Below, in pieces: positions 23,107 to 63,214 of a stretch of DNA of 64,000 nucleotides (position 1 is the stretch's first letter; each line of letters starts with the position of its first letter). The notes below the pieces were generated by a model. That model was not told where the DNA came from. It ran no database searches and saw only the letters and a program-made list of their open reading frames with translations. Source of the stretch: a virus (taxonomy: Duplodnaviria; Caudoviricetes); the IMG/VR virus record IMGVR_UViG_3300033075_001328, positions 1 to 64,000 of that record; one strand, 5' to 3'. The position numbers and the translations under genes were made by a program.

Positions 23107-23514
23107 TTATTTTTTTCTCCACAGTAAATCTAACTCCGTTTTAATTGCTAGAAGCCTGTTTTTTATCATAGTAAAAAAGCCTGCCCCTTCTAATATTGCA
23201 GCTACCAATCCGCCTAACAAATCATAGTAGTCTTGATAGTAGATTTGGTGTGGGTCTAAAAAGAACTCTTTGTTTAAAGATAGCAAATATATTACTGCTA
23301 TAAACGCACAAAGCGGTTTGGCATACCTATTTTCCACAAGTGCATATATCCCCCACCATATTAACGAGAAAGCAAATAGCTCCCACTTGTGGAACTGGTC
23401 GTCATTAATGCAATAGCCGAACCATTTGCAAGTCCACTCCCATTGATATATGGCAAGGTGAATTACAAACGATGCGGCTATTAATACTGCTGCTATGTAT
23501 TTACTTAGTTGCAT
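23107..23514 (-). CDS. multi-pass membrane protein
   Basis: About four hydrophobic segments. Confidence 0.6.
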   Translation of the reverse strand: MQLSKYIAAVLIAASFVIHLAIYQWEWTCKWFGYCINDDQFHKWELFAFSLIWWGIYALVENRYAKPLCAFIAVIYLLSLNKEFFLDPHQIYYQDYYDLLGGLVAAILEGAGFFTMIKNRLLAIKTELDLLWRKK

Positions 23515-37900: not shown

Positions 37901-40115
37901 ATAAATTTATGGGCTGCCAAATGTCAGGTTGACCCGTGTCGGTTACAGTAAAATCATGTGGCGGTGCTAAATCCATTACAAGGAAAGTGCCGCCGTTCGG
38001 AATGTCTGAGTTTACCGTAATCCTTATCTCTTTTTCTTTTACCCAATTTCCATTAGGGTCAAAGCATCCGTGTACGTTTGTACTTGTCTTTTGGTAGTTC
38101 TGACCTGCACTAAGGTCATACATAAAACCTTTGTTTAGCACATCGCCAAAACTGCACCAATGGGATGCTACCCTAAAAACATACTCCCCCGCAGGTAATA
38201 ATATTTCTACTTCGCTATACAAATCTCCGCAAGAGCCACCATTGCAATACAGGTAATTACCGATAGCATCCCGTCTTGCCTGAGTAGAGGTTTCTAATGC
38301 GCCAACTCCATCTACTGGCAAGTCTACACTAATCTGCCTACTTATGCCGAAATAAGGTGTACCTGCCGCATAAATAGGGAAACCGCCTTCTGGAATCCTT
38401 TGGTCGAAATCTGTTTCCATGCCTGACCTTATTCCAAAATCGCCACCTGCACCAGAGCCAAAGCCTCCGCCTCCGAAAAAAGGGAAGTTGTTATCTGTCC
38501 TTGTGGTGTCATGGAAAATGCCTCCCCTATTTAGCGCATACACAGTACTTGGGTCTGAACTTATCCAAAAGGGGTATTTTTTATAATTAGGAAACGCGCT
38601 ATTAAAGTTTCTCCCAGTACCGCTAGAACCCTGCTCTGCATCGCCCAATCCATAGGTTAATATCCTTACCTTAAATTTCACCCTGTATAAAGTGGGGTTT
38701 GGGTTTTGTTCGAAGTCAATAGTATAGGTAGCTTTAGGGCACTCAGGCGCATCATATCCTTCCTTTATGCCACCCTCAATCATCCTGTTCTTTACAAACT
38801 CCTCTGCGTTTACCTCTAGCGGAACATTGTCAAATAGCTTCGCTGCCAACACAGGGTCGATTGCATTGCTTATTATGTTGTTGTAGAACTTAAAGTGTGC
38901 AACCTTGTTCCCGTTTACCAAATCCAAAAACTCGCATGGCTCTAGGTCTATTACTGCCCTATCATTGCCCGTATTCAATTCACGCGCAACAAATCTAACG
39001 CACTTCAATAATACCAGTGTAGTAGCATTAGTTAGTTCCGTATCATTAAAATCTACATCTATATAATTCAACGCCTCATTGCTAGTGCCGTTACACGCTA
39101 GGTTGTCTATCGGTATTTGCGACCATACACCTAACGCGCTTTGCTCGCCGTCGTCGTATATGTATTCTAGCCTGAACTGAAACACCTTGCGTTTTACATA
39201 GTTGGGCAAGAAGTTTACATCTTGCATATACGTGCCCTGCGGCGCGTTCATTGGCTGCCACTTACATCTATCAAAAAACCTATCTATTAAGTTTAGTCCA
39301 TACCAGTTTTCAGGTACTACATAAAAATCGGTATTTGTAAATACTATATTATATGCGTTAACTGCATCTTCGGTTATTGTCAACTTACAGTCGCAAGCAT
39401 CGGCAGTTATGTATTGTCCTAATCCTGCATTTATTTGCTGTGCCAAGCTGGCAAACATCTGTTCAATGGTAAGGTTTGGCGCAATGTTTACATTGATACT
39501 AGCAATAGGCGCATTGTTATCAAACCTGCGCACTACTACTTGAAAAAAGTAAGAAGAACCTGCTTTGCTCAATGGCAGATACACATTCCAAGACTTATAC
39601 TTCTCGCAGATATTAGCTTTGTCTAAGTTTATCTTTTTAGGCACAGGGTCGCACCAGTAAAACAAGTCGCCTGCTCCAGTACCCTGCGGGTCGCCATATA
39701 CTATATTACCAGACGTTATGCGCGTGTCTTTATTCCAACCGAAGTCATAGCTTATGATTTGCTGAACTTCGCCGTATGGGTTGGCAGGGCTAGTCTTGTT
39801 CCTGTAATACCTTAATATTTGATGTTCGCCGTTACTGTTCCACACACAGAATATTACTGTGTTGTATTTAGTGTCCTCAAAAGCACCTATACACTTGTTT
39901 TGCCCATTAGGCAAAGTAGATGTGCTGCCATAGGGTAGCGTATATTTAGTAATATCTACATTGCCCTGTATATTGGTAAGCGAATTGCCTCGCGCTGCAT
40001 TATTTATGGCATTGCGCACGTTTAGCGCATATACGTAGTCGGTATCTTCTACGTTTTGCGCTACACTATCCAAATCTAATCCACCAATAGGGTTGCTTGT
40101 ATCAAATCCGTGCAT
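34950..40115 (-). CDS. tail muzzle/stabilisation protein (crAss muzzle, P22 gp10-like)
   Basis: 1721 aa; GGLDLD..DYVYALNVRN, CIGAFED, FRLEYIYDDGEQSALG, WISFRSYTPE; follows ring proteins. Confidence 0.8.
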   Translation of the reverse strand: MHGFDTSNPIGGLDLDSVAQNVEDTDYVYALNVRNAINNAARGNSLTNIQGNVDITKYTLPYGSTSTLPNGQNKCIGAFEDTKYNTVIFCVWNSNGEHQILRYYRNKTSPANPYGEVQQIISYDFGWNKDTRITSGNIVYGDPQGTGAGDLFYWCDPVPKKINLDKANICEKYKSWNVYLPLSKAGSSYFFQVVVRRFDNNAPIASINVNIAPNLTIEQMFASLAQQINAGLGQYITADACDCKLTITEDAVNAYNIVFTNTDFYVVPENWYGLNLIDRFFDRCKWQPMNAPQGTYMQDVNFLPNYVKRKVFQFRLEYIYDDGEQSALGVWSQIPIDNLACNGTSNEALNYIDVDFNDTELTNATTLVLLKCVRFVARELNTGNDRAVIDLEPCEFLDLVNGNKVAHFKFYNNIISNAIDPVLAAKLFDNVPLEVNAEEFVKNRMIEGGIKEGYDAPECPKATYTIDFEQNPNPTLYRVKFKVRILTYGLGDAEQGSSGTGRNFNSAFPNYKKYPFWISSDPSTVYALNRGGIFHDTTRTDNNFPFFGGGGFGSGAGGDFGIRSGMETDFDQRIPEGGFPIYAAGTPYFGISRQISVDLPVDGVGALETSTQARRDAIGNYLYCNGGSCGDLYSEVEILLPAGEYVFRVASHWCSFGDVLNKGFMYDLSAGQNYQKTSTNVHGCFDPNGNWVKEKEIRITVNSDIPNGGTFLVMDLAPPHDFTVTDTGQPDIWQPINLYLFDSLGNSDINSDSFTGVAVEKAGAFYQALQGWYDGCTTDHNGYFFGITVLNSVSFLVIRALSGQNPNAPTLPITILTDSAVIYYGSLTDVFTKTTMPYNWNSNSTPPTGNGYSLVYGAVATDTPDARNMCSTFINGNVLNSNGDAVSGVLAVYENGKTGVTLQDGSYSIIAWADMVTANLAAFATNNTRLPAPNRLVDDLIFQLSVFCQPVYPNGQSINIDIDPFGPNPSQYNPTNPYIVADFIIDENNNPALKARKRGGQYIDGIRYYDNAGRLCSVARLFDIYIPFETEDLNKYFPNQYAPNTYIQGKPVISWALDPNYNPPEWAAFYQFVRTKNLIYGRYLQWVANQVTYLSAVETDNTPEIETAYANGDATAIKISISNIISYQSANNDSQVGYTFEQGDRLRLMADRTVQFYQGVNDFEITSYDETTQSVIVKITSASVQITSGCLLEIFNPKSVATDDEQILYEVGEVYKCTAPNTPNNQHSVTSGTFTNGDTYWRGRLIIVNDSETKFAAAYPVTIEDASVSDFYPSDAQDIGRIGLIDPNFKQIYRPMLMRFSNQFIPSTAVNGLSSFEELNAKELDRADGQIQRFIFTQNNLVVIGSRREVSNYIQRITAYQAASNTGVLSLSDSFLGTDYVHSQQLGTDLPASVCTQSGKIFGWTNYMANAWKYQGDGEVVISDAKVAAFFKQLSDEGITDAVAVYDRYHEEYILTYWRKRNQILLVSNSTPVSGGYDIRLIVTGNYPELYSTVEVQLLPNGKSYTGEVTSIDGAFIVVRVLTTDTIRLVPLSTVNLIYSLPETIVWFEGNDYTKGNKWISFRSYTPENYCALGDEVVSFKDGYLWIQDKSATRNNFFTAQYDTVFTPMFNAVPQTPKVWHSFNIKQYQANGGCDWSATMTNLNNQLSRINKANWRQLEEFWYTPCKRDLTDDSVPAQTRIVNGRMMRSSTLELRLANDYTGELFLNEVVARYQISERSTK

Positions 40116-42253: not shown

Positions 42254-43323
42254 TAGCTAAGTGTCAACCTTGTTATTGTTACATCTATAGAACAAGCACC
42301 GCCATCGGTAGGCTTGTCTACCAAAAATCGTATCTCTTGACCTGCGGTAAACACGTTGTTCGCAGTTATAGCAGTTGCCGTTACGCCAGTGCCATGCACC
42401 GAACCAAGCGGGATTGTTATTAAGCCACCTGTAAAGTTTGTTCCGCTATTGTCCTGTAGCTGTATTGTACCTGCATCCGTGCCCGACAAATCTTTTGTTA
42501 CCCTCGCTTTTGCCGCCGTAACGGTACAAGGGAACGGCACGGTCATATAGTATGTACCTTGCCATCCTACTTCAAAACTTACATCCAATCTTAAAGTTTC
42601 TGTCAATGCGCCTACACCCCATGTACCACTAGCAACAGCAGGGAAGCCCGTACTCGAACTTGTATCTTGTCCCGTACCTCCGCGAACTGTGGCAAGTTGC
42701 GCCTCGCTACTCATTACGCCGCTTCCGTCATTTATAAGCACTTGGCTAGCTGTGCCGCTTGCTAGTTTTGTTCTTGCAATGGCAGCGGCGGCGTTTATGT
42801 CTGCGTTAACGATAGCCCCCGCTGTTATGGCTGTAACACCCGCATTGGTTATTGTTATATCTCCGCTTATTGTCACATAAACAGGTACACCGCCAACATT
42901 ACAAACAGGTACTTGTGCATCTGTGCCTGATGCTAATTTTATAAGGTCAATGGTTCCATCAATAAGCACAGTCCCATTTAATGCACCTAATCCGTCAAGC
43001 TGTGGGATATAAGAGTATTGAGAGCCCGCTGTGGCATCGGCAAATTGATATACATACTGGAATGGATAATCCATTTGAGTTTCTGTTATCTCATTGCCCT
43101 CTATTGTAAAAGCATATACGCCCTTTACAACTTGGTCTATAGCCTGCGTGATATACCTTATGGTAGTTCCATTTGAAGGAACGCCACCTAAAGACACAAC
43201 AAAATCTGCACCCAATGTTACCGCACCTGTAGCATATATAAATACTACGTCTGGGGGGTTGTTTTGGTCTATTACAAATGTGCCACCTGCGTTCGTTACC
43301 TGTATAATCTGTACTAATGCCAT
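42253..43323 (-). CDS. tail fibre/hub structural protein
   Basis: GAIVNADINAAAAIARTKLA shaft repeats, RGGTG. Confidence 0.65.
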   Translation of the reverse strand: MALVQIIQVTNAGGTFVIDQNNPPDVVFIYATGAVTLGADFVVSLGGVPSNGTTIRYITQAIDQVVKGVYAFTIEGNEITETQMDYPFQYVYQFADATAGSQYSYIPQLDGLGALNGTVLIDGTIDLIKLASGTDAQVPVCNVGGVPVYVTISGDITITNAGVTAITAGAIVNADINAAAAIARTKLASGTASQVLINDGSGVMSSEAQLATVRGGTGQDTSSSTGFPAVASGTWGVGALTETLRLDVSFEVGWQGTYYMTVPFPCTVTAAKARVTKDLSGTDAGTIQLQDNSGTNFTGGLITIPLGSVHGTGVTATAITANNVFTAGQEIRFLVDKPTDGGACSIDVTITRLTLS

Positions 43324-55344: not shown

Positions 55345-56009
55345 GCATTAACAGCCTTTGCATATATCTTTGAAATTCTATCTGGAGAAAACTTAGCCCC
55401 CCTTGCGCCCCTGTACTGACCCTTATTAAGCTGCATGGCAATGTTTAAGTTATCCTTACCTTGAGTGCGCAGCATAAATACCAATGCCTGCACTTGTGCA
55501 TTTTGGCTATCTATGGCTTGTTCTTTACGCGCTTCTACGCTAGCAATTACCGCCTTTTTCTGTGCTTCTAGTATGTTCGGGTTTCCAAGTTTAGCACCTT
55601 GGCGTTTCTTTTCAGCTAGGGCAGACTTTGTCCTATCGCTTATCAACTTAGCTTCATATTCAGCTACCGCAGCTAGGATGTTCAATGTAAATTTGTTTGC
55701 CTGCGGGAAGTCGCAGAACACTACCTCTATCTTAGAATTAAGCACAGAAGATATAAACTGAACGTCCCTCGCAAGCCTATCCAGTTTAGCTACAATAAGC
55801 GTAGCCCCTTCATCCTTACATTGCTGCAAGGCTTTGTATATCTCAACGCGCTTGCGTTTAGCAGTGCCAGTTTCTACCTCTACATACTCAGTAGTTATTG
55901 GCGCGTCTTTTACGTACTCGCTGATAATATGGCGTTGTGCATCCAAGCCCAAGCCAGACTTGCCCTGCTTTTGGGTACTTACTCGTAGATAGCTAATGTA
56001 TGTTTTCAT
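55341..56009 (-). CDS. serine recombinase (resolvase/invertase family)
   Basis: YLRVSTQKQGKSGLGLDAQR (catalytic Ser), LIVAKLDRLAR, EAKLISDRTKSAL. Confidence 0.95.
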   Translation of the reverse strand: MKTYISYLRVSTQKQGKSGLGLDAQRHIISEYVKDAPITTEYVEVETGTAKRKRVEIYKALQQCKDEGATLIVAKLDRLARDVQFISSVLNSKIEVVFCDFPQANKFTLNILAAVAEYEAKLISDRTKSALAEKKRQGAKLGNPNILEAQKKAVIASVEARKEQAIDSQNAQVQALVFMLRTQGKDNLNIAMQLNKGQYRGARGAKFSPDRISKIYAKAVNA

Positions 56010-61639: not shown

Positions 61640-62314
61640 TCATATCGTTTGCAGGAATTTATATAATTTGTAGTTCCATTTGGCATCGTCTAAGGCATTG
61701 TGCTCGTCGGCTTGTTTGGGGTAATTAGGATGTTTTTTAATTGCATCCAATTTGTCATTTTCTCCAAGTTCGTGCCAATCTCTTATTTTAAGAGAATAAA
61801 AGGCATCGTTATACTCACATTTCTCGTCCAAAGTCTGCTTTAAATCACGGCAGTACATAGGGAATCCTTTTGGTAAGTCAATCATCGTGCCGAATAGCGA
61901 GCAGAATACTACCCAATCGTAATCGGCATAGTAGGCGTAGAAAACTGGATTTATCCATTCAAGTCTACCTTTCGCGGTATATCCATTTTCTTGGTAAACC
62001 CTACTTCCTTCATACTCCTTAAATTCCGCTACCATGCAAAATTCCGAAATTTCATTTGCTATCTGCTTATTGCTTTTGCCTATTGGGTAAGAATCTCCTA
62101 ACTGCTTTATCACATTTTCCTTTACCCAATCGCTAGCATCGTTGTAGTTATATTCGTTGCTCACGGCATAATACTCTCGCCCGTCCTCGCAAACAATGCC
62201 AATGCTTATTAGCTGTATGCTGTGGTATGGTTTGTTGAAGTTGCCAATAGTTGGCAGCCATTTAATCGGCTTCTTAAAGCCCTCTATAAATTCGGTGTCA
62301 AAAAAGTATTTCAT
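61640..62314 (-). CDS. DEDDh 3'-5' exoribonuclease (Rv2179c-like)
   Basis: YFFDTEFIE, LISIGIV, YYADYDWV, HNALDDA. Confidence 0.9.
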   Translation of the reverse strand: MKYFFDTEFIEGFKKPIKWLPTIGNFNKPYHSIQLISIGIVCEDGREYYAVSNEYNYNDASDWVKENVIKQLGDSYPIGKSNKQIANEISEFCMVAEFKEYEGSRVYQENGYTAKGRLEWINPVFYAYYADYDWVVFCSLFGTMIDLPKGFPMYCRDLKQTLDEKCEYNDAFYSLKIRDWHELGENDKLDAIKKHPNYPKQADEHNALDDAKWNYKLYKFLQTI

Positions 62315-62410: not shown

Positions 62411-62689
62411 TTATTCTTTTACTTTTCCTGTTGTGATGTAATCGTAAATCTCCTGCGCTTTTTTAGTGTACTCAACATTATCTCCAACTACCCTTGGATA
62501 TGCGGTAACGGCTAAACCAATACAATGCTTACGCATGTGTACCGATTCGTTTATTCGGTCAAAATAAAGCTCAGAAACAATAGCATCTTTATACTCTGTA
62601 GGTAGAGTTGATAGAATATCAACAATGCTGCCTTTTGATTGCTCGTATTTTTCAAATACCGCCTTTTGTTCTTGGTTTAATTCTTCCAT
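62411..62689 (-). CDS. hypothetical protein
   Basis: Co-oriented ORF. Confidence 0.55.
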   Translation of the reverse strand: MEELNQEQKAVFEKYEQSKGSIVDILSTLPTEYKDAIVSELYFDRINESVHMRKHCIGLAVTAYPRVVGDNVEYTKKAQEIYDYITTGKVKE

Positions 62690-62717
62690 TTTATGTAGTT
62701 TGTTTGGTTAAGTAAAA

Positions 62718-62851
62718 ACTATCGGCGTTGCTTTTGTATGCCTACGAGTCGAACGTAGGAACCGTCATACTTTTATCCCCTTCCTGTTGCAACAAGTCGG
62801 GAACCTCTGCGCAGAGAAGCAGCACGGTAATTAGCCGCACCCGCCGATAGT
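62718..62851 (-). ncRNA. 134-nt structured RNA with tRNA-like T-arm
   Basis: Terminal 10-bp stem ACUAUCGGCG/CGCCGAUAGU; CCUACG-UUCGACU-CGUAGG T-arm stacked on GUAUG/CAUAC; further hairpins; U-tract follows. Confidence 0.7.
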
Positions 62852-62860
62852 GAAAGCTTT

Positions 62861-63169
62861 TTAGTTACGCCAAGTAAGAACTTTTACAGCCCACATTTGC
62901 GCGGTTTGTATCTGCCTTATAGCGTACTCTATTATTTCTCGCTCCTCAAGTGTTCTTGCACCACTCAGTCTATCGTGTAATTGGTTTATAGAGCAAGCAA
63001 ACCGATGCTTACAATCGTATACCTCATCTGTTTTACTTGGATTAAAGTCCAAGCCAACTGCACGTGCGCCATAGGTGTTTTCAATATTACCTTCCTTTAC
63101 CACACTTTGAGCAGTAGCATCTACCTCTTGTCCTAAAAATTTCCCTTGATTTTCATCTTTGTTATTCAT
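62861..63169 (-). CDS. Acb2/Tad1-like helical-hairpin protein (putative cyclic-nucleotide sponge)
   Basis: YGARAVGLDFNPS...AIRQIQTAQMWAVKVLT resembles the A..L.EASMWACRAV helix of T4 Vs.4/Acb2. Confidence 0.55.
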   Translation of the reverse strand: MNNKDENQGKFLGQEVDATAQSVVKEGNIENTYGARAVGLDFNPSKTDEVYDCKHRFACSINQLHDRLSGARTLEEREIIEYAIRQIQTAQMWAVKVLTWRN

Positions 63170-63214
63170 ATTGTTTTGTTTTTAGTTACTCTATCAGTTT
63201 TGACCTGTTATTGG

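Follow-up and report, generated by a model that had tools for sequence, protein, structure and literature searches.

A predicted 134-nt structured RNA with a tRNA-like T-arm module behind an Acb2-like gene in a phage genome

Introduction

Acceptor/T-arm minihelices represent the minimal shape recognized by RNase P, RNase Z, TruB, and TrmA, and they serve as laboratory substrates of RNase P, the CCA-adding enzyme, and AlaRS. The T-loop also acts as a tertiary docking module in RNase P, the T-box, and some riboswitches. Within plant mitochondrial transcripts, tRNA-like processing signals known as t-elements have been described, which can be found with the pseudouridine-arm motif GGTTCRANYCC (Forner et al., 2007; PMC1920247). 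YrlA RNAs place a T stem-loop ahead of acceptor-like and D stem-loops, and carry the motif GNCGAAN0-1G in their long stem (Chen et al., 2014; PMC4201824).

The element compared here with these systems comes from an uncultured phage of flavobacterial type and lies in a 72,152-bp IMG/VR virus record (IMGVR_UViG_3300033075_001328), whose first 64 kb form the window that was analyzed; coordinates refer to this window unless the record or another contig is named. A sequence-only reading of the window had described a closed RNA of 134 nt as a tRNA elbow mimic, proposed to serve as a decoy for tRNA-targeting defense nucleases or tRNA-binding sensors, or as a scaffold for the adjacent sponge protein. 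Our preference, held tentatively and well short of even confidence, is for a cis-acting module inside an early operon, functioning as a partial terminator, a 3'-end protector, or a processing site.

Extent and predicted fold of the element

The structured element occupies 62718-62851 on the minus strand, an extent supported by its minimum-free-energy (MFE) fold, the independence of that fold from the flanks, a GC island, and the self-match of model R1, a covariance model built from this single sequence; RNA position i corresponds to window position 62852 - i. It starts 9 nt past the stop codon of an upstream 102-aa gene, ends 28 nt ahead of the start codon of a downstream 92-aa gene, and is a GC island (52% versus 38% in the flanks) at the 98.7th percentile among 134-nt windows. 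A search of the window with model R1 returned the element itself and no second copy. According to the modeled structure, it is probably a discrete, autonomously folding, structured non-coding RNA. A split gene or read-through product was considered and rejected, as the in-frame extension of the upstream ORF ends after 9 codons and both the upstream and the downstream neighbors have complete homologs. Overlapping the element on the plus strand, antisense to the operon, is a 40-aa ORF with a TTG start (62728-62850).

The MFE fold, computed on 62713-62856 of the minus strand, reaches -52.7 kcal/mol and contains every helix that the sequence-only reading had listed. A 10-bp closing stem, P1, leads into a three-way junction with hairpin hp1, from which a short helix, P2, continues to a four-way junction bearing hp2, the two-part hp3, and a 35-nt hairpin. 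P1 pairs ACUAUCGGCG (62842-62851, minus strand; pair probability 0.97) with CGCCGAUAGU (62718-62727, minus strand), a perfect inverted repeat of the former; six of its ten pairs are G-C, and a U-run follows directly on its 3' side (62714-62717, minus strand). The stem and the U-run described earlier are both present, but they do not combine as a 10-bp stem with UUUUU, the choice being between 10 bp with UUUU and 9 bp with UUUUU. By its sequence, P1 with the U-run looks like an intrinsic terminator.

Hairpin hp1 (62821-62841, minus strand; probability 0.77) has a 6-7-bp stem, GUGCGG/CCGUGC, with two or three G-U pairs and a 7-nt loop, CUAAUUA. Hairpin hp2 (62805-62816, minus strand; probability 0.87) reads CUCU-GCGC-AGAG, a perfect 12-nt palindrome. 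Hairpin hp3 (62776-62803, minus strand; probability 0.97, stand-alone z -3.1) pairs UUCCC..CUUGU with ACAGG..GGGGA as two 5-bp helices, with a GA/AA internal loop between them and the tetraloop UGCA as the cap. The P2 helix, UGCUU/AAGCA, has the lowest probability among the helices (0.57). An alternative pairing is possible between ACGGU (62761-62765), in a bulge of the 35-nt hairpin, and the complementary ACCGU in hp1 (62824-62828).

Stability relative to chance

Dinucleotide shuffles average -38.9 +/- 3.7 kcal/mol, and none of 200 is as stable as the element (z -3.71). Because the same fold is recovered with 50, 100, or 200 nt of flank added (helix probabilities 0.57-0.99), the element is predicted to be an insulated folding unit. 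After correction for GC content, the energy of its fold (z -3.4) is level with the extreme end of the values from 7202 windows covering the whole 72-kb record. Four other minus-strand windows, 38041-38180, 42501-42640, 23341-23480, and 55661-55800, are equally extreme, with GC-corrected z values of -3.3 to -3.55. P1 alone is unremarkable, as about 15 perfect 10-bp inverted repeats with loops of 20-200 nt occur in the genome. The minus strand is 9 kcal/mol more stable than the plus strand, for which six G-U pairs are responsible; 14% of windows show an asymmetry at least as large in the same direction, and the difference is not significant.

The loops of all three hairpins are palindromic as DNA (UAAUUA and GCGC within 62805-62841, UGCA within 62785-62794), and hp3 includes a perfect 10-bp DNA palindrome (62785-62794). 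A reading at the level of DNA can be built on such features: a palindrome cluster bounded by 10-bp inverted repeats would be a site for protein binding or recombination, a miniature transposable element, or an attP core. The 12-bp palindrome of hp2, the 10-bp palindrome of hp3, and the UAAUUA loop of hp1 are consistent with it, as are the terminal inverted repeats, the position at a mosaic junction described below, and the presence in the phage of genes for two recombination enzymes, a tyrosine integrase (record positions 70415-71635) and a serine recombinase of the resolvase type. These enzymes, however, lie 7.6 kb and 6.7 kb from the element, respectively. A MITE or other small mobile repeat was rejected, given that the terminal inverted repeats are present yet the element is single-copy in the record; no copies were found in 401 Bacteroidia genomes or in pattern scans, and no target-site duplication is evident at its flanks. 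An attP core was also rejected: a 24-mer had no match, four 18-mer matches all fell outside tRNA genes with none at a host tRNA 3' end, and the integrase is at the distance given. With the six G-U pairs and the more stable sense RNA adding weak evidence against it, a function at the level of DNA is very improbable indeed.

The tRNA-like minihelix

The 35-nt hairpin (62736-62770, minus strand) forms a minihelix that reads, in order, GUAUG, the 6-nt bulge ACGGUU (62760-62765), CCUACG, the loop UUCGACU (62747-62753), CGUAGG, and CAUAC. A 5-bp GUAUG/CAUAC stem (probability 0.84) is thus joined to a 6-bp CCUACG/CGUAGG T-arm (62741-62759, minus strand; probability 0.99), which is identified both from its sequence and by a regex scan, and whose loop is closed by a G-C pair as at tRNA positions 53-61. 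This bears out the earlier description of a canonical T-loop on a 6-bp stem stacked on GUAUG/CAUAC. When tRNA-like genes are excluded, a 5-bp, G-C-closed stem with a UUCRANN loop occurs by chance about 6-7 times per 1.6 Mb of strand sequence, which corresponds to a chance of about 5e-4 within a given 134-nt element.

The further claim, that the RNA mimics a tRNA elbow through contact between the T-loop and a GG in the bulge, found no support. There is no D-arm and no GG in any loop; the sole unpaired GG is that of the bulge, and from there, at the foot of the 6-bp T-stem, it would in the modeled fold be poorly placed for contact with the T-loop. Since the T-arm is extended to 11 bp, the geometry of the tRNA elbow is not reproduced.

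Tests against known RNA families

The element had been judged not to be a tRNA, and neither ARAGORN at default settings nor the Rfam tRNA model RF00005 calls one there; the only tRNA called in the window is at 2407-2481. With its threshold lowered to 80%, ARAGORN reports a mismatched 'tRNA-?' with a 2-nt anticodon, and at 90-95% it reports nothing. Compared with RF00005, the T-arm shows the expected stem closed by G53-C61 and the loop U54-U55-C56-R57-A58-N-N, while the acceptor-like stem has 5 bp instead of 7 and is without CCA. In the cloverleaf-like four-way junction, hp2 holds the position of the D-arm, but its 4-nt loop is without the G18G19 pair of nucleotides; similarly, hp1 differs from an anticodon arm in having U at position 37 on a 6-bp stem.

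Among Rfam families, none matched the element, either at the gathering thresholds or when 601 nt were searched with the cutoff relaxed to E<=10, and no tmRNA was matched with RF00023, the models of permuted forms, or ARAGORN -m. The same tools found the tmRNAs of L068 and L027 as positive controls. The loose resemblance to YrlA proposed earlier fails on each point examined: model RF02553 gave no match at E<=10 (601-nt search), whereas an equivalent search yielded 29.6 bits at L027 1600-1666; the T-arm of the element is followed only by CAUAC and the closing strands; and GNCGAAN0-1G is missing from P1. The statement that Ro60 is not encoded nearby was correct, since PF05731 (TROVE) is absent from the 72-kb record (estimated to be 63% complete), with positive controls recovered. 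As the same method detected a partial YrlA-like module, tmRNAs, and insert-bearing tRNAs in more distant relatives, these negative results for known families are meaningful.

Several of these relatives carry structured RNAs of their own. The YrlA-like module at L027:1600-1666 is sub-threshold (29.6 bits against a gathering score of 69) and sits on a contig without a TROVE/Ro60 gene; L027 also bears a tRNA-like RNA without an anticodon arm (1850-1925) and a permuted tmRNA (350-730), and L068 bears a standard tmRNA (1439-1773). tRNA genes with anticodon-loop inserts of at least about 38 nt are present at L031:253-358 and at L067:2122-2229 and 2282-2415, where they pass the Rfam tRNA threshold and are missed by ARAGORN at default settings.

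A compact, globular RNA of this type could also be a ligand-sensing aptamer or a small ribozyme, in which tertiary docking would fall to the T-loop and P1 with the U-run would form the expression platform. The multi-junction architecture, the size typical of aptamers, a closing P1 that doubles as a terminator stem, the GA/AA internal loop, the A-rich junctions, and a position upstream of a conserved leader all fit this description. Set against it, no riboswitch or ribozyme of Rfam matches, the element has no homologs in the collections searched whereas riboswitch classes are normally widespread, and a related contig, L004, has the downstream genes without the element, which is consequently not an obligatory regulator. 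An aptamer or ribozyme is on balance highly doubtful.

Neighboring genes and promoters

The upstream 102-aa gene (62861-63169, minus strand) encodes a relative of the Acb2/Tad1 hairpin family, an assignment that comes from its homologs: proteins sharing 51-56% identity carry PF24729, while its own Pfam match is weak (E 0.012, below threshold), and the profile of its family matches T4 Vs.4 (7uq2) weakly (E 0.22). With these PF24729-bearing homologs, the label of sponge protein used previously is reasonable. At its N terminus, the protein is extended by about 25 residues relative to homologs of 70-90 aa.

Reading along the minus strand, the upstream part of the operon comprises a 250-aa gene followed by the Acb2-like gene. 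Beyond the element come the gene of a 92-aa orphan protein (62411-62689, minus strand), that of an Rv2179c-like DEDD exonuclease (61640-62314, minus strand), and, further downstream, a DUF1064 resolvase gene. The sole full Bacteroidota-type -33/-7 promoter nearby on this strand, at 64657-64627 of the record, heads the operon, and from 64361 to 60000 the minus strand contains no Bacteroidota-type -7 motif (TAnnTTTG). Because no promoter motif lies nearby, the element is most likely co-transcribed with the operon, and the downstream genes, being without a promoter motif of their own, would depend on read-through. The large terminase is a distant relative of those of Cellulophaga, Flavobacterium, and Tenacibaculum phages, and the phages carrying such relatives infect Flavobacteriia.

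Elsewhere in the window, downstream of a tRNA-Met, the minus strand at 2239-2335 carries a long branched hairpin, roughly 95 nt in size (AAAAAGCCC...GGGCUUUUUU), with a U-run after it. Judging by its sequence, it appears to be a second elaborate terminator-like structure in this genome.

Homologs and the mosaic junction

Searches for homologs returned a single further copy, in the SRR32380200 sample, which was reached via an identical neighbor protein and is 100% identical over 3.5 kb, with no variation. Neither phage GenBank nor 401 Bacteroidia genomes yielded a homolog of the element by blastn, and none was present at 80 related phage loci gathered with the Rv2179c-like exonuclease gene as the anchor. 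Model R1 gave chance matches only when run against 86 related loci, five whole related virus records, and the sponge-gene loci. Scans for patterns in viral and metagenome contigs and in species genomes likewise returned only chance matches, in coding DNA and a tmRNA end; such exact-pattern scans are insensitive to diverged relatives, and the element is an orphan within the collections searched. The lack of covarying homologs, named in the sequence-only reading as grounds for refutation, is what these collections show, no homologs having been found in them.

The related contig L004, from SRR10682192, shares the 92-aa gene, its leader (ACTTAACCAAACAAACTACATAAAATG, 62690-62716), and the exonuclease gene with the window at 80-88% nucleotide identity, and the homology starts at window position 62716, inside the U-run and 2 nt past P1. 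Upstream of this point, L004 has an unrelated gene and a spacer of only 12 nt; the spacer of the window, once the 134-nt element is subtracted, is about 13 nt. In this arrangement, the element behaves as a discrete insert at a mosaic breakpoint, filling exactly the DNA by which the window exceeds L004 here, and it travels with neither the downstream genes nor, in general, the sponge genes. Similar A/C-rich boundary motifs are found at the gene junctions 62690-62716 and 63170-63214 (ACTTAACCAAACAAAC; AACTAACCAATAAC), the former being the exact point at which homology with L004 resumes; these motifs may be sites of mosaic exchange.

The element could alternatively be a functionless remnant, a decayed fragment, either of a tRNA-like gene or of imported DNA, that was left behind at the mosaic junction, with the T-arm as a fossil and the stable fold as a by-product of several palindromes. 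Its status as a singleton across all collections searched and its position exactly on the breakpoint agree with this, and the early region of distant relatives, rich in tRNA, tmRNA, and tRNA-like genes, offers a possible source of fragments. The four-way junction even keeps the order of a cloverleaf, with a 4-bp D-like arm, a long arm, a 5-nt 'variable' stretch, and the T-arm. However, apart from the T-arm, no residual similarity to tRNA or tmRNA models was detected even at E<=10, and among the tRNA genes of 185,579 species genomes, none contains the T-arm and acceptor-like stretch in exactly this sequence. Decay would also be unlikely to leave P1 perfectly paired over 10 bp, helices with probabilities of 0.8-0.99, and folding that is insulated from the flanks. 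Overall, a remnant is a somewhat unlikely explanation.

Comparison of sponge-gene loci

Nine other loci with homologous sponge genes were inspected for a comparable RNA, which was absent from seven (L002, L104-L107, L115, and L116). The remaining two, L005 and L007, carry the closest sponge homologs and have non-tRNA T-arm modules one gene downstream, situated in highly structured non-coding regions of 350-440 nt; these modules show no similarity to the element with model R1, even with filters off. A general association between Acb2-like genes and T-arm RNAs was rejected, with a T-arm RNA present at only two of the nine other loci. The distribution also argues against the proposal that the RNA is a scaffold for the sponge protein, seven of the nine sponge-gene loci being without it.

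In the regions L005:1560-1925 and L007:825-1264, a long hairpin of some 110 nt, nearly identical between the two, precedes T-arm-bearing modules that differ; the MFE values of the regions are -149 and -158 kcal/mol, and Rfam does not recognize them. At another of these loci (L115:1-380), a fragment of a Tad2-like gene immediately precedes an Acb2/Tad1-hairpin gene, an arrangement whose sequence suggests a tandem anti-Thoeris/anti-CBASS pair.

These loci bear on a trans-acting role, in which a tRNA mimic cut from the operon would act as a decoy for tRNA-targeting nucleases or tRNA-binding sensors, or would assist the Acb2-like sponge. Such a role would draw on the canonical T-arm, the position directly behind an anti-defense-type gene, the T-arm-bearing structured RNAs one gene downstream in the two closest sponge-gene lineages, and an exoribonuclease-like gene 0.4 kb downstream. 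Nevertheless, the RNA offers anticodon nucleases no anticodon arm (the 7-nt loop of hp1 has U33 but also U37, on a 6-bp stem), has no D-loop partner for an elbow, and is accompanied by neither Ro60 nor a promoter of its own, L004 keeps the downstream genes without it, and seven of the nine other sponge-gene loci have no such RNA. A trans-acting mimic is improbable for these reasons. A specific arrangement, in which an excised RNA of about 134 nt would engage tRNA-binding factors or defenses through its T-arm and form a protein-plus-RNA counter-defense cassette with the Acb2-like sponge, the RNAs of L005 and L007 being functional analogs, is regarded as quite improbable.

A cis-acting module within the operon

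For the preferred reading, that of a cis-acting module, we infer a course of transcription, termination, processing, and enzyme recruitment. The element would be transcribed within the minus-strand early operon and not from its own promoter. P1 and the U-run would then halt part of the transcription and would cap the upstream message, encoding the 250-aa and Acb2-like proteins, at its 3' end against 3'-to-5' exonucleases. By analogy with t-elements, the minihelix may attract tRNA-processing enzymes: it would give host tRNA enzymes (RNase P or Z, TruB, TrmA) a handle with which to cut or mark the RNA, and cleavage could free a stable RNA of about 134 nt. A leaky terminator, a 3'-end protector, or a processing site is the most economical proposal because the genes that follow the element lack their own promoter motif; since, in addition, L004 runs through the junction, a complete terminator is unlikely, and a partial terminator or processing site fits better.

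Counted in favor of this reading are the stable, flank-independent fold, the GC island, the insert-like position, and a T-arm that is improbable by chance, together with the documented tRNA-like processing signals (PMC1920247), the elaborate terminator after tRNA-Met, and the unrelated T-arm modules of L005 and L007. Counted against it is the single sequence with a sole, identical second copy, so that there is neither covariation nor conservation. The 5-bp acceptor-like stem, the 11-bp stack with its 6-nt bulge, and the lack of CCA are further points against, as are a 114-nt multi-branch 'loop', atypical for an intrinsic terminator, and the finding that neither P1 alone nor the strand asymmetry goes beyond what chance would give. 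In the predicted structure, the minihelix is locked in a closed multi-branch fold, which may hinder access by RNase P and RNase Z.

The element is one sequence, and its value is that of a lead, not of a result. If it is real and processed, it would join a growing number of modules that resemble tRNA without being tRNA, lie between phage early genes, and are unlisted in RNA databases; such modules may let phages borrow host tRNA enzymes to punctuate or stabilize their messages. Its position behind a sponge gene of the anti-CBASS/Thoeris type makes it a cheap candidate for an RNA role in counter-defense.

Comparison with known systems

Among the described systems, YrlA RNAs are similar to the element in length (80-130 nt), have ends paired in a long stem and a branched domain with a T-arm, as it does, and include phage-encoded cases, but the element is without a D-arm and without an acceptor-like hairpin after the T-arm. 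Intrinsic terminators are similar in their GC-rich, perfect stem with a U-run directly after it at the end of a gene. They differ in having a loop of 3-8 nt, compared with 114 nt of multi-branch structure here. The element is also internal to an operon, with no promoter recognizable for the genes after it; a terminator scan did not list it.

Laboratory tRNA minihelices resemble the 35-nt hairpin in the coaxial arrangement of an acceptor-like stem and a T-arm, with a short bulge replacing the D and anticodon arms, although the stack here is 11 bp instead of 12, has no discriminator-CCA, and is embedded, not free-standing. In the case of t-elements, the core GTTCGACTC fits the GTTCRANYC part of the search motif, with the flanking G/C pair inverted (CGTTCGACTCG). 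The T-stem pair 52-62 is C-G here and not G-C, the acceptor-like stem has 5 bp, the module is buried in a closed five-helix fold, and the organism and enzymes are bacterial instead of mitochondrial. Like t-elements, the module is a non-tRNA, pseudouridine-arm hairpin on an acceptor-like stem between the genes of a polycistronic unit, and, like them, it could direct RNase P or RNase Z.
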